DNA from: Rhodospirillales bacterium
Lineage (GTDB): Bacteria > Pseudomonadota > Alphaproteobacteria > Rhodospirillales > JASLLV01
Direction: 5' to 3'
Length of the DNA stretch: 45,450 nt
NCBI GenBank assembly: GCA_030746935.1
Contig: JASLLV010000001.1
Span: 1-45,450, forward strand
In this document: positions 705 to 12,977 of the stretch, piece after piece
Layout: each line of letters opens with the position of its first letter
How positions within the stretch are numbered: the first letter of the stretch is position 1
The notes under the pieces: model-generated
Told to the model about the DNA's origin: nothing
Databases searched by the model: none
What the model saw: only the letters and a program-made list of their open reading frames with translations
Made by a program: the position numbers and the translations under genes

Positions 705-2531
<1,827 letters not shown>

Positions 2532-2685
2532 CGCCCCCCCTCAGCGCCCGTTTGCCCGGGGCGGACCCGGCGGCGCGGTCGATCCGGCTTGCCCTGCGGT
2601 GATTGATTCTCGCTTTCGCGTGAAATGCACGAAACGGAGCGGCGATGCAAGGAAAACGGACCGTGACGCCGCCATCGTGTGGGCC

Positions 2686-3423
2686 TCAGGCGAAGCGCGC
2701 CCGCGCGTCCCGGGCGAGCGCCGAAAGCGCATCGCGGCAGGCGGCGGCGGCGCTTACCGGAATCGGGAAAGGCAGGCGCGCGTAATTGGGCCCCCGCCGC
2801 AAATCGATCCCTTCTGGATCCACCCCGATCACCCGCCAGCCGTCGCCCTTGCGCCCGAGAAGGGCACGTGCATAGAGCCCGACGAGGTCGGCGTGGTCTT
2901 CGTTCATGTGTTCGATCACACCCGCCTCGCTGGTCGCCATCGCCGCCGGTCCGGGGCCGCCGAGGACGAGATCGCGGCCTTCGATCCACGCGGCCTTCGC
3001 GAACCCGCCCACGTAGCGGGCGCGGCTCACGGTCATGCGGTAAAAGTTGAAGTCCGCGAAGCCGGCGTACGATCGCGCTTCCGGGTGGCGCGCGAGGAAC
3101 CGCCGCGCGTGGCGCTCGTCGCGGGTGGGCTTCACCCGCCCCATCAGGCTCACGCGGGCGCCGGTCTGCGGGTTCTTGAGACCGTTCGCCGCCCCCACCA
3201 ACAATGACGCGCACCGGTTCGCGTGGATGTTACGGGTGTGGTCGGCAAGCTCGGAGAAGAGAAAGATCGGGCTCGCGTCCATGTCCCAGCCAAGCGTGAC
3301 GAGCGAAGCGAACGGAAAGCCAGCACCCTTGCGTCCACTCGCCTCGGTGGCGAGCGCGCCGGCGCGCGCGCCTCGCATCAGCGCCCGCACCGAAGCCGCG
3401 TCGGGCGTGAACGCGCGTCTCAC
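2686..3423 (-). CDS. HugZ/HutZ-like pyridoxamine-5'-phosphate-oxidase-fold protein with a C-terminal DUF2470-like domain (putative haem-binding or haem-degrading)
   Basis: 245 aa. The N-terminal split-barrel-like part reads GALATEASGRKGAGFPFASLVTLGWD...IFLFSELADHTRNI, and the C-terminal part reads VIEHMNEDHADLVGLYARALLG...WRVIGVDPEGIDL. The GTG start at 3421-3423 overlaps the TGA of the upstream CBS gene (GTGA). Confidence 0.6.
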   Translation of the reverse strand: MRRAFTPDAASVRALMRGARAGALATEASGRKGAGFPFASLVTLGWDMDASPIFLFSELADHTRNIHANRCASLLVGAANGLKNPQTGARVSLMGRVKPTRDERHARRFLARHPEARSYAGFADFNFYRMTVSRARYVGGFAKAAWIEGRDLVLGGPGPAAMATSEAGVIEHMNEDHADLVGLYARALLGRKGDGWRVIGVDPEGIDLRRGPNYARLPFPIPVSAAAACRDALSALARDARARFA

Positions 3424-3833
3424 TCCTGGGGCTCGTCGCCGATGTGACGCAACACCATGTCGCGTAGCGTCACGATGCCCACCGGGCGGCGCTCGTTGTC
3501 CAGCACCAGGGCGCGCGTGAGCTGGAACCGCGTCAGCAGGCGGACGGCATATTTGATATCCATCTCGGCGGGCAAGGTCAGGACCGGCTTGGTCATGACC
3601 TCGTAGACGTTGACCCGGTCCGACGAGCGGTCCATTCCGATCACCTCGCGGGCAATATCGGTGACCACCAACAGACCGAACTCGTCCGCCTCGTCGCGGC
3701 GCTCGACCACGAGCGAGCTGACGCGGGCCTCGCGCATGATCGCGACCGCCTCGCGGACGGTGGCGGTGCGGCCGATGGTGCGAACCTCGGGCGTCATGAC
3801 CTCGCGGACATGAATGGGGCCATCGGCGCTCAT
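3420..3833 (-). CDS. Stand-alone CBS-pair protein
   Basis: 137 aa starting at the ATG at 3831-3833 (MSADGPIHVREVMTPEVRTIGRTATVREAVAIMREARVSSLVV...VYEVMTKPVLTLPAEMDIKYAVRLLTRFQLTRALVLD). It contains two CBS motifs. The longer 273-aa ORF in the track is an Arg-rich extension that overlaps the PII-like gene. There is an ATGA overlap with the PII-like gene at 3830-3833. Confidence 0.8.
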   Translation of the reverse strand: MSADGPIHVREVMTPEVRTIGRTATVREAVAIMREARVSSLVVERRDEADEFGLLVVTDIAREVIGMDRSSDRVNVYEVMTKPVLTLPAEMDIKYAVRLLTRFQLTRALVLDNERRPVGIVTLRDMVLRHIGDEPQE

Positions 3834-4180
3834 AGCTGGGCCTCGATTTCTTCGAGCAACGTCGGCGCCTGGGTCTTCAGGCCCTCGGCGTCCTCGATGG
3901 CGAGTTGAAAGGCGATGCCGCTTCCCGGCTCTTCGTCGAACTGTCCCGCCTTGGCAATGGTCTCGAGGATCTCGCGCGCGCGCTGTTGGGCGACGAGGAA
4001 CAAAAGGACGTCCCTTTGCCCCGTCAGGTCCAGCCCAAAAAAGGTCTTGTCCGGCTTCAATCCCTCGCCGCGGCCGCTCGTAATCACGGTCGCCCCGGTG
4101 GCGCCGGCGTCTCGGGCCGCGTCGATGACGGCGTCGGTCTTTTCGTCGGACACGAGCGCCACGATCAGCTTTAGATTCAT
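3830..4180 (-). CDS. PII-like signal-transduction protein (not GlnB/GlnK type)
   Basis: 116 aa: MNLKLIVALVSDEKTDAVIDAARDAGATGATVITSGRGEGLKPDKTFFGLDLTGQRDVLLFLV. Its length and beta-alpha-beta pattern fit the PII fold, with a Gly-rich loop at the T-loop position. There is an ATGA overlap with the upstream DUF1538 gene at 4177-4180. Confidence 0.7.
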   Translation of the reverse strand: MNLKLIVALVSDEKTDAVIDAARDAGATGATVITSGRGEGLKPDKTFFGLDLTGQRDVLLFLVAQQRAREILETIAKAGQFDEEPGSGIAFQLAIEDAEGLKTQAPTLLEEIEAQL

Positions 4181-4962
4181 TGGATCTCCTCCGCGTCATG
4201 CGGTCGGCGCAGGCTGCGGAACACCTCCGACAGCATGGCATACCCCAACACCGAAATAATGGGAAACACGCTTGCGAACGCGATCAGGCCGAACCCGTCG
4301 ATCAACGGGCTGCGGCCCGGGATCGCGGTGGCGAGCCCGAGCCCGAGTGCAGCGACGACGGGCACGGTCACGGTCGAGGTGGTGACGCCCCCGGAATCGT
4401 ACGCCAGGGCGACGATCGTGCGAGGCGCGAAGATGGTCTGGACGATGACGATCGCGTAGCCAGCCATGATGTAGTACGCGAGTGGGGTTCCGGTCACGAT
4501 CCGAAAAGTCCCCAGCGCCACACCGACCGCGACCCCGACCGCGACCGCGATCCGCAAGCCCCAGCCGTGGACGGCGCCACCCGAGACCCCTTCGGCCTTC
4601 AGTCCGACGGCGATCAACGACGGCTCGGCAAGCGTGGTCGCGAACCCGATCGCGGCAGCGAAGACGTAGACCCAGACGAAGCTCCACCACTCGGCGGGAC
4701 CGCCCGCGGGCGCGCCCACCAGATCGCGAGCCGTCAGTTGCGTCGCCATGGCTTCGCCCAACGGGAACAACGCCTTCTCGAGCCCCATCAGGAACAGTAC
4801 CAGCCCTGCCAGCACGCAAACGCAGCCCACCACGGTGCGGCGCAGGTGCGGCGGCGGGCGGCGAATGATCAGGACCTGGAAGGCGACCAGCAGGGCGACG
4901 ATCGGCGCGACGTCGAGAAGGGTCGCGACGCTTGTCTCGAGGGCGTGTCCGAGAGTGGCCAC
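4177..4962 (-). CDS. DUF1538-family polytopic membrane protein (paralogue B)
   Basis: 261 aa and hydrophobic throughout. It has the motifs GLEKALFPLGEA and [46 protein letters not shown]. The GTG start at 4960-4962 lies 9 nt after the stop of paralogue A, with the SD GAGGGG in between. Confidence 0.7.
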   Translation of the reverse strand: MATLGHALETSVATLLDVAPIVALLVAFQVLIIRRPPPHLRRTVVGCVCVLAGLVLFLMGLEKALFPLGEAMATQLTARDLVGAPAGGPAEWWSFVWVYVFAAAIGFATTLAEPSLIAVGLKAEGVSGGAVHGWGLRIAVAVGVAVGVALGTFRIVTGTPLAYYIMAGYAIVIVQTIFAPRTIVALAYDSGGVTTSTVTVPVVAALGLGLATAIPGRSPLIDGFGLIAFASVFPIISVLGYAMLSEVFRSLRRPHDAEEIQ

Positions 4963-4971
4963 CGGCGCCCC

Positions 4972-5727
4972 TCAGACCACCATGCCGAAGACGAGGACGA
5001 ATATCATCGGCGCCAGGCTCGCGAACGCGATCAGTCCAAAGCCGTCGATCATCGGACTTCGCCCGCGGATGGCGCTGGCGAGGCCGACGCCAAGCGCCGT
5101 CACCAGGGGGACCGTAATGGTCGAGGTGGTGACGCCGCCGGAATCGTAGGCGATCCCGACGATTTCGGGCGGCGCAAACGCGGTCAGGGCGATGACGAGT
5201 AGGTATCCGCCGACGATAAGGTAGTGGATCGGCCAGCCCTTGATGATTCGCACCACGCCGACCACCAGGGCGACGCCGACCGCGACCGCGACCGTGAGCC
5301 TGAGCGCCAGCGCATAAGTCCCCTTGGCCTCGCCCGTTCCGGCGATGACACCGGCCTCGCTGGCGGCGGCGGCCTTTGCGGCGACCGCGTTCAGGACCGG
5401 CTCGGCGACCGTAGTGGCGAAGCCGAGCCCGAACGCGAACGTCAGCAACACTGCCAAGCTTCCCTTGCGGGCGAACGCGTTCGCGAGCGCCTCGCCCAAG
5501 GGAAACAATCCCATCTCGAGGCCGTATACGAACAGCGCCAGGCCCAGGACGACGAAGACGACCCCGAGAAGAATCCCGTCCAGGTCCGGCAGCGGCTGGC
5601 GAAACAGCAACGCCTGGAACAAAACCACGACGACGACGATCGGCGTCAGGTCCCGGACCGCGCCTGCCAGCCGGCGAAAAAGGCCTCGAGCGATGGATTC
5701 CATGTGAAACGCAGTCTTTGCGGGCAT
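4972..5727 (-). CDS. DUF1538-family polytopic membrane protein (paralogue A)
   Basis: 251 aa. It has the motifs [12 protein letters not shown] and [46 protein letters not shown], which are clearly paralogous to the next gene. An alternative start is the ATG at 5703 (MESIARG...). Neither start has a good SD. Confidence 0.7.
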
Positions 5728-5778
5728 CCGGAGATTGGAGAGGCCCGCCGACGCCCGTGCCGGGCCGATCGGGGCGGC

Positions 5779-6459
5779 TCAGTCCTGTCCCAGTCTCTTG
5801 TACACGTGCCCCCCGAGACCGCCAAGGATCAACCAGAAAAGCGCGGTCGCGACGAGCGAGGCGGCCGCGAACTCGGCCGCGAGCGCGGCCGGCACCGCCG
5901 ACGCTTCGACTTGGACGTGGGGCGCGCCGACGAGATGCGGCGCGGCCACGATCATGGCGCCCAGAAGCCGAAACCCGATCCGGCGCGCAAGAAACAACAA
6001 CCCAAGCCCGGCCGCCGTGCAAACCGCGGTCGCCAGCCACCAGATTTGCCGCTCGAGCACCGGCGCCGATTCGATTCCCGGCAGCTCCGGCGGCAGACCC
6101 AACGCCGGCGCCGCCGAAAACGCGGCGAAACCGCCCAGGCCCCAAAGCAGCCCGCGCCCGAGATCGACGTCGCGCCCGCTAAGCGCGATCGCGCCGAGAA
6201 GCGCCAGTGCGAAGCCGACCCCGAGGGCGATGTCGGCGATCAGCGTTACCATCGCGCGCCGATCGAGCGGGCTTCCGAACGCCTGGCCCTCGGCGCTGGA
6301 ATCGGCAGCGTCATGGGCATGCGCCGCGGCCGCTTGCGCGTGCTCGTAAGTCTCCGCCTCGAGGATCAGAGGAACCACCTTCAGCGTATGGGCGCCCCAG
6401 GTGAAAAACCCGGCGGCCGCGCCCGCGATCAGCGCCGCGCCGACGATACGCCCGAACAC
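5779..6459 (-). CDS. cbtA: Predicted cobalt transporter subunit CbtA
   Basis: 226 aa membrane protein with a His-rich periplasmic segment (YEHAQAAAAHAHDAAD). It lies directly downstream of cbtB and of a cobalamin riboswitch. Confidence 0.75.
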   Translation of the reverse strand: MFGRIVGAALIAGAAAGFFTWGAHTLKVVPLILEAETYEHAQAAAAHAHDAADSSAEGQAFGSPLDRRAMVTLIADIALGVGFALALLGAIALSGRDVDLGRGLLWGLGGFAAFSAAPALGLPPELPGIESAPVLERQIWWLATAVCTAAGLGLLFLARRIGFRLLGAMIVAAPHLVGAPHVQVEASAVPAALAAEFAAASLVATALFWLILGGLGGHVYKRLGQD

Positions 6460-6469
6460 CTAGCACCCC

Positions 6470-6667
6470 CTAGTGACAGGGAAGGGCGAAGGCGTGGCGG
6501 GCGTCGTGGGCCGCGTCGTGAAGGGTCGCGGGCGCCGCGAATCCGGCGACGAAAACGATGAACGTCCCGAGGACGATCGCGAGAATCGGCGGAAATGCGG
6601 CGTATGAGCTGCGCCGCAAGCGATCGGCGGCGGCGGTTGAGCGCTCGCGGCTGGCGGAAAGAATCAT
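6470..6667 (-). CDS. cbtB: Predicted cobalt transporter subunit CbtB
   Basis: Small one-TM protein ending in the His-rich tail HDAAHDARHAFALPCH, which is typical of CbtB. I prefer the ATG at 6665-6667, because GGAGG sits 7 nt upstream of it. The track's start at 6682 lies inside that SD. Confidence 0.75.
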   Translation of the reverse strand: MILSASRERSTAAADRLRRSSYAAFPPILAIVLGTFIVFVAGFAAPATLHDAAHDARHAFALPCH

Positions 6668-6766
6668 GATCTCGGCCTCCATTCAGCAAGACAACGTTCC
6701 TTGTCACCGCGAACGGAAGACCCGCCCCTTGGGAATGCCCCGTCCCGAGGGATCACGATGACCCGT

Positions 6767-6951
6767 GGTGGCCGGTCTCCTGGCTCGCGGCTCGGTGCCG
6801 GCCCGCCGCCTTCCCAACGCCCCGATGGGGCCTCAGTGGCCGCATGACGCACCGGCTCGCCGCCTACAGTTGCGGGGTCAGCCTCGGCTTGAGGGCAAGT
6901 TTCCGCGCCCCTGACCGCGTTCCCGTTTCATCTCCTTCGCGAAGAGCCACC
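6767..6951 (-). promoter_or_regulatory. Cobalamin (B12) riboswitch aptamer; the expression platform continues to about 6683
   Basis: Read on the minus strand: B12 box AGCCAGGAGACCGGCC (6785-6770); GCCACUG (6840-6834); CCCGCAACUGUA; GGGAAGGC; AACGGGAAC. The closing P1 helix pairs GGUGGC (6951-6946) with GCCACC (6772-6767). In the platform, GGUCUUCC can pair with the cbtB SD region GGAGGCC. Confidence 0.85.
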
Positions 6952-6957
6952 GATTTG

Positions 6958-6987
6958 ACTATAATTCGGCCACAATTGCCCCGTCAA
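6958..6987 (-). promoter_or_regulatory. Sigma70-like promoter for the riboswitch/cbtB transcript
   Basis: On the minus strand: TTGACG (6987-6982), an 18-nt spacer, then TATAGT (6963-6958). The -10 element ends about 7 nt before the riboswitch P1 helix. Confidence 0.5.
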
Positions 6988-7076
6988 ACCATCGCGCAAG
7001 CTGGCGGCCCTGACGCGCGGCGGGCGTTGGGGCAGCGGCGCATCCGGGGCGTGAACCGAGGGGCAGGGTTCGCATC

Positions 7077-7778
7077 ATGACGCGTACGATCGCTCTCGTG
7101 GACGACGACCGCAATATCCTCGCCTCCGTTTCCATGGCGCTGCAGGCCGAGGGGTTCGAGGTCTACACCTACTCGGGCGGCGAAGAGGCCCTTGACGGCT
7201 TGGACCGGCGGCCCGCCGACCTCGCCATCCTCGACATCAAGATGCCGCGCATGGACGGGATGGAGCTTTTCAACCGGCTTCGGCGCAAAAGTGCTACGCC
7301 CGTGATCTTCCTAACCTCCAAGGACGACGAGATCGACGAGATGTTGGGGCTCCGCATGGGGGCGGACGACTACATCACCAAGCCCTTTTCCCAGCGTTTG
7401 CTGATTGAGCGGGTCCGCGCCGTTTTGCGCCGCCACGAGCGCGCGCGCCCCGAGGCCGGTGGCGATGGTGACGGCGAGGTCGTCCGCCGCGGCGAGCTGG
7501 TGCTCGATTCCTCGCGCCATCTCTGCACTTGGCGGAATGAGGCCGTCAACCTCACCGTTACCGAGTTCCTGTTGGTCAAGTCGCTCGCCAACCGGCCCGG
7601 CCACGTCAAGAACCGCGACCAGCTGATCGACGCGGCATACGGCGAACAGATCTATGTGGACGACCGCACCATCGACAGCCACATCAAGCGCCTGCGCAAG
7701 AAGTTTCGCGACGTCGACCCCGCGTTTGCGCAGATCGAGACGCTCTACGGCATCGGCTACCGCTATCGCGATGGCTGA
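7077..7778 (+). CDS. chvI: OmpR-family response regulator ChvI
   Basis: 233 aa. It has [25 protein letters not shown]...[57 protein letters not shown]. It is followed by the chvG-like kinase and hprK, as in other alphaproteobacteria. Confidence 0.85.
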
Positions 7779-7807
7779 GGCCCGCGGGCACGCCTGAGGG
7801 CGGCGCC

Positions 7808-9436
7808 ATGAACGCCAAGATGCGTCGTCGCCGGCGGGGCCGCGCGGTCTCGCCGATCACGCTGCGCATTCTCGCCGTCAACGTCCTTGCGCTCGCGATC
7901 CTGCTCGCCGGCATCCTCTATCTCGACGAGTACCGGCGCAGCTTGATCGAAAGCGAGCTCGCGGCGCTCGGCGTCCAGGCCGAATTGTTCGCCGCCGCAT
8001 TGGGTGAAGGCGCGATCGACCTGGCGCCGGCGGCGACCGAAGGCGAAGGTACCGAGCGGTTGGCACCCGAGGCCGCGCGCCAGATTCTCAGGCGGATGGC
8101 GGAAACGTCGGGCACTCGGGCCCGGCTTTTCGCCGGTGATGGCGGTTTGCTGGTCGACAGTCGCGAGCTCGCGGCGCCCACGGGCAGCGTCGAGATCGAG
8201 GAGCTTCCGCCGCCCCGGGCAGACACCGGGTTCGCGCACGCCCTTTCCGAGCTGTTCGACCGGGCCGTCAACTGGATTCCCGGCACCGGCGACATGCCAC
8301 CCTATCGGGAAAACGCGCCTCAGGCCGCGAGCGACTACGACGAAGTGGTCCAGGCGCTGGGCGGCGAGGCCGCCGGCGCCGCGCGCAGCGACGCCCGGGC
8401 GGGCATGATCATCAGTGCCTCGGTTCCGGTCCAGCGATACAAACGGGTGCTGGGCGCGTTGATGCTGTCGAAGGATTCGCGCGACATCGAGGCGGCGCTC
8501 TTAGACGTGCGCGTCGGCATTGTCGAGGTGTTTGCGGTCGTCCTCGGCGTGACGGTCCTACTATCGCTCTATCTCGCCGGAACCATCGCGCGGCCGATTC
8601 GGCGCCTCGCTGCCGCCGCCGAAAGGGTCCGCGCCCAGCCCAAACACCGCCATGCGATCCCCGATTTCGCGCACCGCGACGACGAAATCGGCGAGCTGGC
8701 CGACGCACTTCGCGACATGACCGAGGCGCTCTGGCAGCGCATGGACGCGATCGAGCGGTTCGCCGCCGACGTCGCCCACGAGATCAAGAACCCGCTCACC
8801 TCGCTCCGCAGCGCGGTCGAGACCGCGGCGCGCGTGACGGACGCGGACCAGCGCCGGCGCCTGTTCGCCATCATTCTCGACGACGTGCAGCGACTCGACC
8901 GGCTGATCACCGACATCTCGCACGCATCCCGGCTGGACGCCGAGCTGTCGCGCGCCGAGACCGGACCCGTCGACGTCGCCGGAATGCTGGCGACCCTGGT
9001 CGCGGTCCACGGCACCACCATCTGCGAAGGCGCGCCCCGATTGCGCCTCGCGTCCGAGAGCTGCGGAGGCTTCGTTGTCAACGGGATCGAGGGCCGCCTA
9101 GTCCAGGTATTTCGCAACCTGATCGCCAACGCCGACTCGTTCAGCCCGCCCGGTGGCCTCATCACGCTGGACGCGCGCAAGGAATACGGCGCCGTCACCG
9201 TCCGCGTCGAGGACGAGGGCCCAGGCATCCCCGACGGCAAGGAAGACGCGATCTTCGAGCGCTTCTATTCCGAGCGCCCATCGGGCGAGAAGTTCGGTAT
9301 CCACTCCGGTCTCGGGCTTAGCATCTCGAAGCAAATCGTCGCGTCCCACGGCGGCACGCTGACGGCGGAGAACATCCGCGACGATTCGGGGCACGTCCGG
9401 GGCGCCCGGTTCACGGTTCGCCTGCCGACCGATTAG
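7808..9436 (+). CDS. chvG: Sensor histidine kinase ChvG/ExoS/BvrS type
   Basis: 542 aa with two TM segments flanking a periplasmic domain. It has a HAMP domain, an intact H-box FAADVAHEIKNPLTSL, an N box (FRNLIANADSF) and G boxes (DEGPGI, GLGLSI). Confidence 0.8.
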   Translation: MNAKMRRRRRGRAVSPITLRILAVNVLALAILLAGILYLDEYRRSLIESELAALGVQAELFAAALGEGAIDLAPAATEGEGTERLAPEAARQILRRMAETSGTRARLFAGDGGLLVDSRELAAPTGSVEIEELPPPRADTGFAHALSELFDRAVNWIPGTGDMPPYRENAPQAASDYDEVVQALGGEAAGAARSDARAGMIISASVPVQRYKRVLGALMLSKDSRDIEAALLDVRVGIVEVFAVVLGVTVLLSLYLAGTIARPIRRLAAAAERVRAQPKHRHAIPDFAHRDDEIGELADALRDMTEALWQRMDAIERFAADVAHEIKNPLTSLRSAVETAARVTDADQRRRLFAIILDDVQRLDRLITDISHASRLDAELSRAETGPVDVAGMLATLVAVHGTTICEGAPRLRLASESCGGFVVNGIEGRLVQVFRNLIANADSFSPPGGLITLDARKEYGAVTVRVEDEGPGIPDGKEDAIFERFYSERPSGEKFGIHSGLGLSISKQIVASHGGTLTAENIRDDSGHVRGARFTVRLPTD

Positions 9437-9512
9437 GGCGTTCCGCCGGCGCAGCATCCGTGGCCCGCATCGGTTGACAGCCGCCTGGCGTCGTCACAGG
9501 CTTCGCCCCATC

Positions 9513-9947
9513 ATGGTTCGCGTTCACGCAACCTGCGTCGCCGTCGACGGGAATGGCGTGCTTTTGCGCGGCCCGCCGGGATGCGGAAAATCGGATTTGG
9601 CGCTGCGCCTGATCGATACCGGCGCGCGCCTGGTCGCGGACGACCAGACCGAGCTTCGGCTGAGCGCCGACCGCCTCGAAGCCTTTCCGCCACCCGCGAT
9701 CGCCGGCTTTCTCGAAGTCCGCGGCGTCGGCGTGGTGCCGATCGACAACCTGCCTTCGGCCCTGCTTTCCGTGGTCGTCGATCTGGTCGCGAGCGACGCG
9801 GTCGAGCGGGTTCCCGAGGCAGAAAGGTGCGTCTACCTCGGGGTGGCGATTCCCCTGTTCCGGCTTTCGCCGTTCGAGGCGTCGGCGCCGGCCAAAGTTC
9901 GCCTTGCCGTCAAGGCCGCCACTGGCCTAATAATGCCCGTTCCATGA
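9513..9947 (+). CDS. hprK: HPr kinase/phosphorylase, short alphaproteobacterial form
   Basis: MVRVHATCVAVDGNGVLLRGPPGCGKSDLALRLID (Walker A)...FLEVRGVGVV. I prefer the ATG at 9513 over the track's upstream TTG at 9474. Its stop overlaps the rapZ ATG (ATGA at 9944-9947). Confidence 0.85.
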   Translation: MVRVHATCVAVDGNGVLLRGPPGCGKSDLALRLIDTGARLVADDQTELRLSADRLEAFPPPAIAGFLEVRGVGVVPIDNLPSALLSVVVDLVASDAVERVPEAERCVYLGVAIPLFRLSPFEASAPAKVRLAVKAATGLIMPVP

Positions 9948-10930
9948 GCGAGCGGGTCTCCACCGTCACGCCGAAGGGACGCCGGAGGCGGGCTCGCCCC
10001 GACGCCCCGACGCCCCCCGCGGGCGGCAACCTCCGGGTCCTGCTGGTCACCGGAATGTCTGGGGCCGGCAAGACGTCGGCGCTCAAGTCCCTGGAAGATC
10101 TTGGATACGAGGCCGTGGACAACCTCCCGTTGACCCTGTTGCAAAGCCTGGTTCTGCCGCGCCGGCCGGAGTGCGCGTCAGCGCAGGATTTAAAGCCGGT
10201 CGCGATCGGCGTCGACGTTCGCACCCGGGATTTCGGGGTCGCGCCGATCATCGGGGAAATGGACCGTTTGTCGGCCGAGCCCAGGATCGACGCGAGCGTC
10301 CTGTTCCTGGACTGTGACGACGAGGAGCTGATGCGGCGCTACGCGGAAACGCGCTACCGCCACCCGCTCGCCCTCGACCGCCCGATTCGCGACGGCATCG
10401 ACCACGAACGCCGCTTGGTTGCGGGCCTGCGCGACTGGGCCGACGTGGTGGTCGACACCACCGGCCTCGATCTCGGGTCCCTCAAACGCGTCCTCGACGG
10501 CCACTTCGGCGCCGGCGCCGGCGAGCGCCTCAGCATCTTCGTTACCTCGTTCTCTTTTCGCCGGGGATCGCCGCGCGAGGCCGACCTGGTTCTCGACGTC
10601 CGCTTCCTCTCCAACCCCCACTACGAGCCGGCGCTGCGTCTCCTGGACGGCCTTGACGCCGCGGTGGCAACCTTCATCGAGCGCGATCCCGGCCTCGCGC
10701 CGCTGTTCAACGGCTTGACCGGGATGTTGTCCGAGCTCGTGCCCCGCTATGCCGCCGAGGGCAAGAGCTACCTGACGGTCGCACTCGGGTGCACGGGCGG
10801 GCGTCACCGATCGGTCTTCGTGGCCGAGCGGCTGGCGGCCTGGCTCGCGAAACAGGGCGGAACCGTGCGCGTACACCATCGCGATCTCGACGCGGACACG
10901 CCCGCCATGGGAGGCGCTGAGACGTCATGA
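9944..10930 (+). CDS. rapZ: RNase adapter / nucleotide-binding protein RapZ (YhbJ)
   Basis: It starts MSERV..., then LRVLLVTGMSGAGKTSALKSLEDLGYEAVDNLP, FLDCDDEELMRRYAETRYRHPL, CTGGRHRSV. The longer ORF from 9581 is an out-of-frame overlap with hprK. Confidence 0.85.
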   Translation: MSERVSTVTPKGRRRRARPDAPTPPAGGNLRVLLVTGMSGAGKTSALKSLEDLGYEAVDNLPLTLLQSLVLPRRPECASAQDLKPVAIGVDVRTRDFGVAPIIGEMDRLSAEPRIDASVLFLDCDDEELMRRYAETRYRHPLALDRPIRDGIDHERRLVAGLRDWADVVVDTTGLDLGSLKRVLDGHFGAGAGERLSIFVTSFSFRRGSPREADLVLDVRFLSNPHYEPALRLLDGLDAAVATFIERDPGLAPLFNGLTGMLSELVPRYAAEGKSYLTVALGCTGGRHRSVFVAERLAAWLAKQGGTVRVHHRDLDADTPAMGGAETS

Positions 10931-11334
10931 TCGGAATCGTGATCGTTACCCACGGCCGGCTTGCCGACGAGCTGGTGGCGGCCATGGAACACGTGGTCGG
11001 CCCCCAGGGCAAGGTGGCGACCGTTTGCATCGCGCCGAACGATGATATCGAAGAGCGGCGCACCCAAATACTCGATAGCGTCGCCGACGCCGACGAAGGC
11101 GCGGGCGTCGTTCTTCTCACCGACATGTTCGGAGGCACGCCTTCGAACCTCGCCATCTCCATCATGGACAAGGCCAATGTCGAGGTGATCGCGGGCGTAA
11201 ACCTGCCGATGCTGATTAAGCTCGCCAGCGTTCGCGAAACCGAGTCCCTCGCCGCTGCCTCGACCAGCGCCCAAGAGGCGGGACGCAAGTACATCAACAT
11301 CGCGTCCAGCCTGCTCGATCAAAAGCGCGAATGA
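10927..11334 (+). CDS. PTS EIIA component, mannose family
   Basis: 135 aa: MIGIVIVTHGRLADELVAAMEHVVG...VLLTDMFGGTPSN. It has ATGA overlaps with both neighbours. Confidence 0.85.
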   Translation: MIGIVIVTHGRLADELVAAMEHVVGPQGKVATVCIAPNDDIEERRTQILDSVADADEGAGVVLLTDMFGGTPSNLAISIMDKANVEVIAGVNLPMLIKLASVRETESLAAASTSAQEAGRKYINIASSLLDQKRE

Positions 11335-11636
11335 CCGAAGATGGGCGACAACCGCGACGCAAGCCGCGTGTGCGTCGGCATCGAATCGCGATCGGCAACA
11401 GGCGCGGCCTTCACGCCCGCGCCGCCGCCCTGTTCGTCAAGACGGCGTCCGCCTTCGACGCCGAGGTGACGGTGCGCAAGGACTCCGACACCGTATCCGG
11501 GATCTCCATCATGGGGCTTATGATGCTGGCCGCGGGCCACGGCAGCGAGATCACGCTTATCGCCAAGGGACCCGAGGCCCAACAAGCCATTCGCGCGCTG
11601 TCCGCGCTGATTGAAGCCAACTTTCAAGAGGAGTGA
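11331..11636 (+). CDS. ptsH: HPr/NPr phosphocarrier protein
   Basis: 101 aa. The active-site His context is GNRRGLHARAAALFVK, and SIMGLMMLAAGHGSEITL is also present. Confidence 0.8.
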   Translation: MTEDGRQPRRKPRVRRHRIAIGNRRGLHARAAALFVKTASAFDAEVTVRKDSDTVSGISIMGLMMLAAGHGSEITLIAKGPEAQQAIRALSALIEANFQEE

Positions 11637-11681
11637 GGTCGTGGATCTCGAATCGCACGCAGCCGCCAAGAGGAAGACCGC

Positions 11682-12977
11682 ATGAACGCCGAGACCGATT
11701 ACCGGATCGCCGACATCGAACTTGCCGAGTGGGGACGGCGAGAGATTGCCATCGCCGAGACCGAAATGCCGGGCCTGATGGCGCTTCGAGACGAGTTCGG
11801 CAAGAAAAAACCCCTCAAAGGCGCCCGCGTGACCGGATGTCTGCACATGACCATCCAGACGGCTGTGCTCATCGAAACCCTGGTCGAGCTCGGGGCCGAG
11901 ATCCGGTGGAGCTCGTGCAACATCTTCTCGACTCAGGACCATGCCGCCGCCGCGATCGCGGCGCGCGGTATTCCGGTGTACGCATGGAAAGGCGAGACCG
12001 AGGACGAGTATTGGTCGTGTATCGACAGCACCATCGAAGGTCCCGGCGGCTGGCGCCCGAACATGCTGCTCGACGACGGCGGCGATTTGACGCTGATAAT
12101 GCACGAGCGCCACGCCGAGCGGATGACCGAGGTGCGCGGCCTGTCCGAGGAAACCACCACCGGCGTCCACCGGCTTTACGAGATGGAGCGCGAAGGCCGG
12201 CTCCTGGTGCCTGCGTTCAACGTCAACGATTCGGTCACCAAGTCGAAGTTCGATAACCTGTACGGGTGCCGCGAAAGCCTGGTGGACGGGATCAAGCGCG
12301 CCACCGACGTCATGCTCGCGGGCAAGATCGTAGTGGTCTGCGGTTATGGCGACGTTGGCAAAGGATGCGCGCAGGCGCTTCGCGGCCAGGGCGCCCGAGT
12401 CCTAATCACCGAGATCGACCCGATCTGTGCGTTGCAGGCCGCCATGGAGGGATACGAGGTGGTCGGCATGGACGAGGCTGCGGCCGCCGCCGACATCGTC
12501 GTGACCGCCACCGGAAACATCCGGGTCGTCACCATCGACCACGTCCGGCGAATGAAGGATCGCGCGATCCTGTGCAACATCGGCCACTTCGATAAGGAGA
12601 TCGAGGTGGATGCGCTTCGCAACTATAAGTGGCACAACGTCAAACCCCAAGTCGACGAAATCGAGTTTCCGGACGGCAAGCGCGTAATCCTGCTCGCCGA
12701 AGGCCGCCTCGTGAACTTGGGGTGCGCGACCGGGCACCCAAGCTTCGTCATGAGCGCGTCGTTCACCAACCAGGTCCTCGCGCAGATCGAGCTATGGACC
12801 AATGCCGAAGCCTACGAGAACAAGGTGTACGTGCTTCCCAAGCACTTGGACGAGAAGGTCGCTCGGCTTCACATCGAGAAACTGGGAATCGCGCTGACGC
12901 GGCTGTCACCCGAACAGGCCGACTACATCGGCGTCCCCCTCGACGGACCCTACAAGCCCGATTATTACCGATACTAG
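11682..12977 (+). CDS. ahcY: Adenosylhomocysteinase
   Basis: 431 aa: [31 protein letters not shown]...[16 protein letters not shown]...[13 protein letters not shown]...NIGHFDKEI. Confidence 0.97.

Follow-up and report, generated by a model that had tools for sequence, protein, structure and literature searches.

Few signal processors are as widespread as PII proteins. Only a small number of PII transporter targets are understood, chiefly AmtB and SbtA. In the GlnK-AmtB and SbtB-SbtA systems, the PII-family protein plugs its cognate transporter. A gene module that probably offers a variant of this theme is found in a 45,450-nucleotide stretch of DNA from a Rhodospirillales bacterium (assembly GCA_030746935.1, contig JASLLV010000001.1, positions 1 to 45,450), which is called the window here. 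The module consists of four genes on the minus strand. Two of them encode membrane proteins of the DUF1538 family, called UmpA and UmpB here, the third encodes a PII-like protein, and the fourth encodes a stand-alone pair of CBS domains.

The closest described system is UmpAB of Halomonas zhaodongensis, in which two DUF1538 proteins form a Na+(Li+,K+)/H+ antiporter (Meng et al. 2017, PMC5484666). Expressing umpA together with umpB rescued Escherichia coli KNabc, and the two proteins were co-immunoprecipitated as a heterodimer (PMC5484666). In everted vesicles the pair exchanges Na+, Li+ and K+ for H+, with K0.5 values of 0.26, 0.46 and 0.41 mM at pH 9 (PMC5484666). A clade drawn at 54% identity or more groups Halomonas UmpAB with homologues from Vibrio and Methylococcales (PMC5484666), and loci from both groups in the present sample carry PII and CBS genes.

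A further line of evidence comes from a 2026 study, in which the Pfam features that best predict optimal growth pH include DUF1538 as well as components of Mrp, Trk and Kdp (PMC13255231). This association gives circumstantial backing to a role in the homeostasis of cations and protons.

The antiport activity of UmpAB is thus already known. What appears to be new is a conserved partnership with PII and CBS proteins. In the searchable literature, no description was found of this partnership, of its extent across the family, of the fusions described below or of the predicted inverted topology of DUF1538 proteins.

Conservation of the four-gene module

A scan of one genome per species of the GTDB taxonomy found at least 594 relatives of DUF1538, and the best 80 loci were kept. 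In these loci UmpA is 59-70% identical to that of the window. They come from Alpha- and Gammaproteobacteria, Nitrospirota, Chloroflexota, Desulfobacterota, Acidobacteriota and Magnetococcales. The proteins of the window were searched against all open reading frames of the loci, and 74 loci had enough downstream sequence to be evaluated.

The order UmpA-UmpB-PII-CBS is found on one strand in 68 of the 74 loci, and the carriers of this full set include Alpha- and Gammaproteobacteria, Nitrospirota, Chloroflexota and Desulfobacterota. Conservation of gene order and coupling to this degree, in loci that each represent a species, is far beyond chance. The PII gene is present in 72 loci, four lack the CBS gene, and two have UmpA only. 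The genes are closely coupled: an overlap of 4 nucleotides joins the PII gene to the CBS gene in 60 of the 68 complete loci, and one of 1 nucleotide does so in another 5. Between umpA and umpB the overlap is 4 or 1 nucleotides in most loci.

The two soluble proteins also vary together. When CBS is present, the PII-like protein is exactly 116 amino acids long in 64 of 68 loci. In the four loci without CBS it has 109, 122, 124 or 126 amino acids, and its C-terminus is altered. This co-variation of PII length with the presence of CBS suggests that the two proteins work together.

Conserved flanking genes were sought across the 74-80 loci and not found, the commonest family, an amidase, being present in 8 of 74. 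In a close relative the four genes stand by themselves, in other genomic surroundings. Because the flanks are not conserved and the bare module occurs elsewhere, the four genes form an autonomous unit.

Individual loci show some variation. In one 5.3-Mb genome (L004, 3937-7998), an IS1595-family element and a DDE_Tnp_1 transposase interrupt umpA and umpB and leave PII and CBS intact. The sister contigs (L005, L006) carry an undisrupted module. In a member of the Nitrospirales (L016), the stretch just downstream of the module, before the following gene begins, holds a c-di-GMP-I-GGC riboswitch (8633-8709, 72 bits).

Identity of the membrane proteins

Both membrane proteins match Pfam PF07556 (DUF1538) over profile positions 1-211. 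The E-values are 3.5e-65 for UmpA and 8.4e-66 for UmpB, and the scores of 219.7 and 221.7 bits stand against a cut-off of 22.6. The two proteins had been called paralogues in a preliminary description of the locus, and this holds: they are 50% identical, and the motifs quoted for them are present, a first one of which GLEKALFPLGEA is one of two versions and a second one containing DSGGVTTST.

The NCBIfam models for the Halomonas-type subunits distinguish the two proteins. UmpA scores 335.6 bits on the UmpA model (NF041627) and 164.4 bits on the UmpB model. UmpB scores 302.7 bits on the UmpB model (NF041628) and 199.8 bits on the UmpA model. Because each paralogue scores best on its own model, the orthology is subunit-specific, A to UmpA and B to UmpB.

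These matches place the proteins in a family with a known substrate. The preliminary description, unaware of an experimentally defined substrate for DUF1538 proteins, had treated the transporter as one with none assigned and had named a match of this kind as a result that would refute it; on this point it is superseded by the work on UmpAB. The domains it had expected were all recovered in Pfam: DUF1538 on both membrane proteins, P-II on the third product and CBS twice on the fourth.

PII-like genes and fusions across the DUF1538 family

The link to PII extends beyond the close relatives of the window. Among 12 distant loci examined, a PII-like gene or domain adjoins DUF1538 or is fused to it in 11. 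Every distant DUF1538 gene examined on a plasmid or chromid (33-47% identity) has a PII gene after it. In the plasmids of Methylocystis and Chelativorans, for instance, two DUF1538 genes precede a PII gene for a protein of 112-122 amino acids.

In five Clostridia (L088, L089, L091, L092, L093), the two DUF1538 domains form a single chain of about 500 amino acids, which is followed by a tandem PII protein of about 222 amino acids. The ratio of DUF1538 to PII domains in these loci is 2:2. This ratio hints at the CBS pair taking the place of a second PII domain in Proteobacteria.

Pairing with PII is family-wide, and CBS is restricted to the UmpAB-like clade. The preliminary description had named a lack of conserved co-occurrence of DUF1538 with PII-like or CBS genes as a result that would refute it, and the loci examined here decisively show the opposite.

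Fusion of domains provides a second kind of evidence. An exhaustive profile search of 1.84 billion cluster representatives showed the family to be small, with 3,390 clusters at E <=1e-3 and 2,022 at E <=1e-10. Among the best 150 representatives, 66 have one DUF1538 domain, 70 have two, and 8 have a fused PII domain. A complete A-B-PII fusion can be found in a protein of 659 amino acids (P0362), with a Pfam P-II score of 37.6 bits. Three more proteins (P0370, P0389, P0495) have the same type of linker and PII. Since linker and PII type are common to four proteins, the A-B-PII fusions are a genuine clade and not an artefact of gene calling. Further distant representatives have the arrangement A-B-PII-CBS, or a fused transporter followed by a tandem PII.

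The central idea of the earlier proposal, that a heteromeric permease of DUF1538 proteins has a PII-like and a CBS protein as its own partners, is well supported by the conserved gene order and by these DUF1538-PII fusions.

Other proteins of the family carry different additions. One locus (L094, 6093-7175) encodes a protein of 360 amino acids without a Pfam match, downstream of a 701-amino-acid DUF1538 fusion and overlapping it by 14 nucleotides. With 25.6 bits on the profile of the DUF1538-associated PII proteins, it resembles a multi-PII protein that has diverged strongly. Another protein (P0363; L099, 3501-5675; seven contigs) has a double DUF1538 and a C-terminal P-loop domain resembling cytidylate kinase, with no PII neighbour. 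This is the one exception among the 12 distant loci, and its P-loop domain is a different nucleotide-binding appendage on the same kind of transporter. P0390, P0400 and about 30 other representatives of 600-740 amino acids contain an insert of 100-200 amino acids without a Pfam match, placed between the domains or inside the second one.

Several apparent cases were set aside. Of the "fusions" that the first profile search gave (P0121-P0130), most are calls with a truncation or a frameshift. P0388 (L101, 764-1975, 403 amino acids) is not counted as a fusion: its N-terminal half is A-type, it becomes B-type after the identical GGVTTSTVTVPLVAALGIGLA, and PII follows. It is probably an assembly artefact from a collapsed repeat or a recombination product. 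This protein shows that the near-identical motif DNA of the umpA and umpB paralogues can mislead assemblers. The Borrelia membrane protein BB0017, which has a PII-like domain, is unrelated and belongs to YitT/DUF2179.

Predicted transporter architecture

An AlphaFold2 model of UmpA (mean predicted local distance difference test score, pLDDT, 87.4; predicted template modelling score 0.77) contains nine helices. The invariant motifs AEP (108-110) and DSGGVTTS (195-202) lie at helix breaks of this model. Helix breaks of this kind are typical of ion-binding sites in secondary transporters, and the motifs may have such a role here.

A Foldseek search of the UmpA model against the Protein Data Bank (PDB) gave no significant match, the best having E of about 1 and a template modelling (TM) score of at most 0.25. 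The weak top matches (ZIP, ClC, BetP) were not used. A search of the PDB with the UmpA sequence returned chance-level matches only. As far as the model can tell, the DUF1538 subunit appears to have a fold without a solved relative.

The orientation of the subunits in the membrane can be predicted from the distribution of lysine and arginine (K+R), which were counted in the homologous loops of 81 UmpA and 22 UmpB sequences. The mean count at the N-terminus is 3.10 in UmpA and 0.59 in UmpB. In loop 1-2 the values are 0.36 and 2.73, in loop 4-5 they are 0.94 and 0.00, in loop 5-6 they are 0.28 and 1.00, and in the C-terminal tail they are 0.04 and 4.77.

This mirror-image bias, together with seven predicted passes in each subunit, points to an antiparallel 7+7 heterodimer. 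In the predicted topology, UmpA has its N-terminus inside and its C-terminus outside, and UmpB has its N-terminus outside and its C-terminus inside. Fused DUF1538 forms have short acidic linkers between the domains and a basic C-terminus. When a PII domain is fused, it sits on the C-terminus of the B-type half, the end that is predicted to be cytoplasmic, in agreement with the inverted topology.

PII-like protein

The third protein matches Pfam P-II (PF00543) at 40.9 bits, above the cut-off of 25. Its AlphaFold2 model (pLDDT 86.5) has the order beta-alpha-beta-beta-alpha-beta followed by a C-terminal helix. Strands are at residues 3-11, 31-36, 56-64 and 88-94, helices are at 12-25 and 65-79, and a loop separates the second and third strands. 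Foldseek matches the model to GlnB, GlnK and SbtB at probability 1.0 and TM of about 0.6-0.67, which is a generic fold match (SbtB is at rank 50).

At the level of sequence the protein stands apart. A profile of its family gives only 29 bits with the best solved PII protein, and SbtB is absent from the matches of this profile in the PDB at E <=0.01. Nor does its genomic setting agree with SbtB or the carboxysome-associated PII proteins: the neighbours are DUF1538 genes in every locus, not sbtA or dab.

Canonical PII proteins are recognised by two PROSITE signatures, Y-[KR]-G-[AS]-[AE]-Y in the T-loop and [ST]-x3-G-[DY]-G-[KR]-[IV]-[FW] in the B-loop. The T-loop of the window protein is GRGEGLKPDKTFFGLDLTG, which does not match the canonical uridylylation motif. 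The description of this product as PII-like, with a T-loop unlike that of GlnB and GlnK, was therefore accurate. Within the family the T-loop is almost invariant, with the pattern R-G-E-G-x3-K-T-F-F-G-L, and is shorter than the canonical loop by three to five residues, depending on the alignment. In the B-loop, EEPGSGIAFQ, S replaces D and I replaces K of the canonical signature. The glycine scaffold and T29 are kept, and the counterpart of K58 is a near-invariant R56.

Public annotation of this protein, in the window and in the proteins P0001-P0120, reads "P-II family nitrogen regulator" or "nitrogen regulatory protein PII". This label is probably misleading in view of the DUF1538 context and the lack of residues that bind 2-oxoglutarate and ATP (see below).

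CBS-pair protein

The fourth protein contains two stretches matching Pfam CBS (PF00571), with 74.9 bits, and is 137 amino acids long. It ends after the pair, and the earlier characterisation of a bare CBS pair is correct.

The closest solved relative of its family profile is CBS-CP12 of Microcystis (PDB 5nmu; E 8.9e-36, 126 bits, residues 6-128), and all others score at most 76 bits. The pairwise identity of the window protein to 5nmu is 33%. The CBS domain of CBS-CP12 binds adenosine monophosphate (AMP) and not the diphosphate (ADP), the triphosphate (ATP) or cyclic AMP (PMC6142219). In the window protein, the second CBS motif keeps the ribose-phosphate motif G-I-V-T-x-x-D. Because of this motif and the kinship with CBS-CP12, AMP or a related adenosine compound is the best guess for its ligand.

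Gene layout and upstream context

The genes of the module and its neighbours are listed in Table 1. As had been described, the four genes of the module are coupled on the minus strand, with ATGA stop/start overlaps at 4177-4180 (umpB/PII) and 3830-3833 (PII/CBS). A third overlap, GTGA at 3420-3423, couples the CBS gene to a HugZ-like fifth gene.

Between the two membrane genes, the stop codon of umpA (TGA, 4974-4972) is followed by 9 nucleotides, GGGGCGCCG, and then by the GTG start of umpB. A gap of this length carrying the Shine-Dalgarno sequence GAGGGG had been noted before. The gap is as described; GAGGGG overlaps the umpA stop codon rather than lying in the gap alone. The later of two possible umpA start codons is probably the true one, since the nearest relative has a 2-nucleotide indel between the two ATG codons and orthologues have about 244 amino acids.

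Table 1. Features of the umpAB module and its surroundings in the window.
Feature	Position	Strand	Remarks
umpA-like gene, DUF1538 subunit A	4972-5727	minus	251 amino acids; likely true start ATG at 5703 (243 amino acids)
umpB-like gene, DUF1538 subunit B	4177-4962	minus	261 amino acids; GTG start; basic C-terminal tail (predicted cytoplasmic)
Non-canonical PII-like protein gene	3830-4180	minus	116 amino acids; ATGA overlap with umpB
Stand-alone CBS-pair (Bateman) protein gene	3420-3833	minus	137 amino acids; ATGA overlap with PII gene
HugZ-like fifth gene (CREG/PNPOx beta-barrel + DUF2470)	2686-3423	minus	Pfam PF13883, PF10615, PF01243
cbtA, putative cobalt transporter gene	5779-6459	minus	Pfam CbtA 5.5e-41
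cbtB, putative cobalt transporter gene	6470-6682	minus	Pfam CbtB 5.8e-17
Cobalamin riboswitch ahead of cbtB	6753-6966	minus	Rfam RF00174, 92.3 bits
Sigma-70-like promoter ahead of cbtB	6987-6958	minus	promoter-like site, 10/12 positions matched

Directly upstream of the module are the cobalt transporter genes cbtB and cbtA, preceded by a cobalamin riboswitch. TIGR02458 is matched there as well, at 201.5 bits, above the cut-off. The gap between cbtA and umpA is 51-75 nucleotides and has no terminator-like fold (structure z-score 0.54). With a short gap and no such fold, the module and the HugZ-like gene could be read through from the B12-controlled promoter, and cbtBA and the umpAB module may be on the same transcript. 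A terminator or attenuator in the spacer cannot be claimed at this z-score, which is not significant.

The layout of riboswitch, cbtBA and umpA is also found in three relatives (L001-3). A fourth (L010) has a riboswitch of 121 bits and a gap of about 730 nucleotides. No riboswitch or conserved regulatory RNA was found upstream of umpA in the 22 loci scanned. Among related loci, the HugZ-like gene was detected only in Rhodospirillales (L001-3, L010, L018). The cbtBA and HugZ-like genes are thus lineage-specific additions and stand outside the conserved module.

On a larger scale, the module lies within the synteny pckA / chvI-chvG / hprK-rapZ-EIIA(Man)-NPr / ahcY that is typical of Alphaproteobacteria (window 705-12977), where it seems to have been inserted between pckA and chvI. 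At its start the window has part of a K+-channel gene (Ion_trans_2, 171-680).

Proposed mechanism and alternatives

The reading favoured here, with moderate confidence, is that the module encodes a UmpAB-type cation/proton antiporter gated by adenylate-sensing PII-like and CBS proteins; we infer the substrate, the ligands, the contacts and the direction of regulation largely by analogy. The UmpA-like and UmpB-like subunits would form a heterodimeric secondary transporter, a 7+7 inverted pair, with the invariant AEP and Y-D-S-G-G-V-T-T-S motifs at its helix breaks. By homology with the only characterised member, it would exchange Na+, K+ or Li+ for H+.

The CBS protein and the PII-like protein, which is probably trimeric, would be made in fixed proportion from their overlapping genes and act as cytoplasmic post-translational regulators. 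The PII-like protein could dock on the cytoplasmic face, near the basic C-terminal tail of UmpB, and block or open the transporter. Gating would be set by adenine-nucleotide (energy) status, sensed jointly by the two proteins. Since the Halomonas pair is active in E. coli in their absence, the partners are more naturally seen as regulators than as core subunits.

Several points weigh against this reading. Both window proteins fall below the NCBIfam equivalog cut-offs (335.6 bits against 490 for UmpA, and 302.7 against 500 for UmpB), and with such scores function is transferred across about 50-60% identity. Ten gammaproteobacterial orthologues, at 361-401 bits, are also short of the equivalog cut-off. 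The function of the family is known from one protein pair only, by KNabc complementation and everted vesicles, and the physiological substrate could differ. A profile search with Oceanospirillales UmpA proteins returned only other gammaproteobacteria, and the Halomonas umpAB locus was not among the matches. The partners are moreover dispensable for transport, as UmpAB antiport in E. coli proceeds without a PII-like or CBS protein (PMC5484666).

On the side of the regulators, the PII-like protein has no counterparts of Q39, K90, R101 and R103, which serve Mg-ATP and 2-oxoglutarate in PII proteins; the positions are variable or non-basic. Sensing of 2-oxoglutarate is for this reason unlikely, and the ligand might not be a nucleotide at all. 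Finally, the stoichiometry is awkward, since PII proteins are trimeric and the transporter is a pseudo-twofold dimer.

The alternative that survives best keeps the same architecture and changes the substrate. The transporter would carry bicarbonate, cobalt or another metal, and the antiport seen with UmpAB would be a side activity. We consider this unlikely, though it deserves the most attention among the alternatives. The cobalt version draws on the cbtB-cbtA genes and the cobalamin riboswitch directly upstream in the window, and the preliminary description had put cobalt and nickel among the uptake assays that it suggested. This link rests on an adjacency that is restricted to a single lineage of Rhodospirillales (the window, L001-3 and L010), and, as noted above, none of the 22 loci scanned has a riboswitch upstream of umpA.

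The bicarbonate version is suggested by the many carriers that are chemolithoautotrophs or methanotrophs (Thiomicrorhabdus, relatives of Beggiatoa, Gallionellaceae, Nitrospirales, Methylococcales), and by SbtB, the partner of a bicarbonate system and the best-known PII-like transporter partner outside nitrogen control. Any enrichment in autotrophs is tentative, and the module also occurs in marine heterotrophs (Vibrio, Shewanella, Colwellia, Thalassotalea). The flanks of the 74-80 loci show no thematic link to carboxysomes, RuBisCO or metals. That DUF1538 is tied to no class of substrate by a solved fold leaves room for such alternatives, and the sub-millimolar affinities measured for UmpAB weigh against them.

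In a second alternative, the signal runs in reverse. The transporter would be a membrane anchor or sensor (a "transceptor") that sequesters the PII-like and CBS proteins or releases them to other targets. It is typical of PII proteins, GlnK and SbtB among them, to have more than one target, the soluble enzyme PRK is the target of the CBS domain in CBS-CP12, and UmpAB transports without partners. Set against this, no neighbourhood was seen in which the partners are encoded apart from DUF1538, and no other conserved neighbour offers itself as a second target. PII is also fused to the transporter in one clade, and a tandem PII is encoded with the fused transporter in Clostridia. Because a permanently tethered PII domain cannot shuttle to other targets, this alternative is disfavoured, and we judge it improbable.

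The last and least probable alternative, in which the two soluble proteins sense a cyclic dinucleotide such as cyclic di-AMP rather than AMP, ADP or ATP, has a striking formal parallel in the cyclic di-AMP receptors DarA/PstA and DarB/CbpB, since in Firmicutes a stand-alone PII-like protein (DarA) and a stand-alone CBS pair (DarB) take part in K+ and osmolyte control, much as such a pair stands here beside a K+/Na+ transporter, and SbtB reportedly binds cyclic di-AMP as well (PMC8654305); it is unlikely given that the CBS protein scores 20.5 bits on the NCBIfam CbpB model (NF041630) with a cut-off of 125, that the PII-like protein has no Pfam match to the DarA/PstA family, that the closest CBS relative binds AMP and not cyclic AMP, and that, to our knowledge, Proteobacteria, which are most of the carriers here, are largely without diadenylate cyclases.

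Significance

The antiporter reading can be extended to the family as a whole, as a more tentative proposal. DUF1538 proteins would be structurally unprecedented 7+7 inverted ion transporters, nearly each with a dedicated PII-like protein that is separate, tandem or fused. In the UmpAB clade an AMP-sensing CBS protein would join them, giving a ternary switch that ties Na+/K+/H+ (pH and salt) homeostasis directly to energy charge.

PII targets. The module provides a new, clearly defined family of candidate PII targets, with genetic evidence from gene overlap, co-variation of partners and natural fusions. If the proposal is true, this is the third partnership between PII and a transporter, after AmtB-GlnK and SbtA-SbtB, and a phylogenetically broad one.

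Energy state. It would also be a rare case of direct control of a cation/proton antiporter by energy state.

Membrane-protein evolution. DUF1538 shows inverted pairs, double fusions and transporter-sensor fusions in what appears to be a fold without a solved relative.

Annotation. The membrane genes are labelled merely "DUF1538", and the PII-like genes carry the nitrogen-regulator label discussed above.

Experimental access. The existing assay system for UmpAB, E. coli KNabc and everted vesicles, makes the regulatory hypothesis directly testable.

Comparison with known systems

UmpAB of Halomonas zhaodongensis. Like the window, this system has adjacent DUF1538 paralogues of about 250 and 260-270 amino acids that are stop/start coupled, with seven predicted membrane segments in each subunit. 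Certain subunit-specific insertions are common to both, namely in loop III-IV of A and in loop II-III of B, as is a hydrophilic C-terminus in B. The predicted transport activity of the window proteins rests on homology, with scores below the equivalog cut-offs, whereas that of the Halomonas pair has been characterised. The publication on UmpAB, unlike the present analysis, makes no mention of PII, CBS, membrane orientation or regulation (PMC5484666).

Dual-topology-derived pairs. Pairs of the SMR family (YdgE/YdgF), Fluc/CrcB pairs and DUF606 resemble UmpA and UmpB in being adjacent paralogues with opposite K+R bias that occur elsewhere in fused form. Their subunits have three to five passes, whereas UmpA and UmpB are predicted to have seven each and to form a 7+7 inverted unit. 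The predicted fold of UmpA, in contrast to this group, has no significant match in the PDB.

CBS-CP12. The CBS domain of this protein is a pair of equal length to the window protein and its closest solved relative. The window protein has no CP12 domain, and only residues 4-126 of 5nmu align with it. Where CBS-CP12 is linked to thioredoxin or PRK, the genomic partners here are a transporter and a PII-like protein.

Transporters with CBS domains. In MgtE, ClC, OpuA/OpuC and CNNM/CorC, as in the present module, a Bateman module that senses a nucleotide or an ion is tied to a transporter. In those systems the CBS domains are fused to the transporter or its ATPase; here they are a separate protein of 137 amino acids, and its gene overlaps the PII gene.

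GlnK-AmtB and SbtB-SbtA. In these systems and in the module, a small PII-fold protein is encoded directly downstream of a membrane transporter and co-occurs with it throughout the family. Like GlnK and SbtB, the PII-like protein has a conserved T-loop, which could insert into the cytoplasmic face of the transporter. This loop is shorter than that of GlnB and GlnK and has no uridylylation motif, and the equivalents of Q39, K90, R101 and R103 are absent. AmtB and SbtA are homotrimers, whereas the partner here is a predicted DUF1538 heterodimer. Unlike the GlnK and SbtB systems, the module has a third component, a CBS pair whose gene is coupled to that of the PII-like protein.

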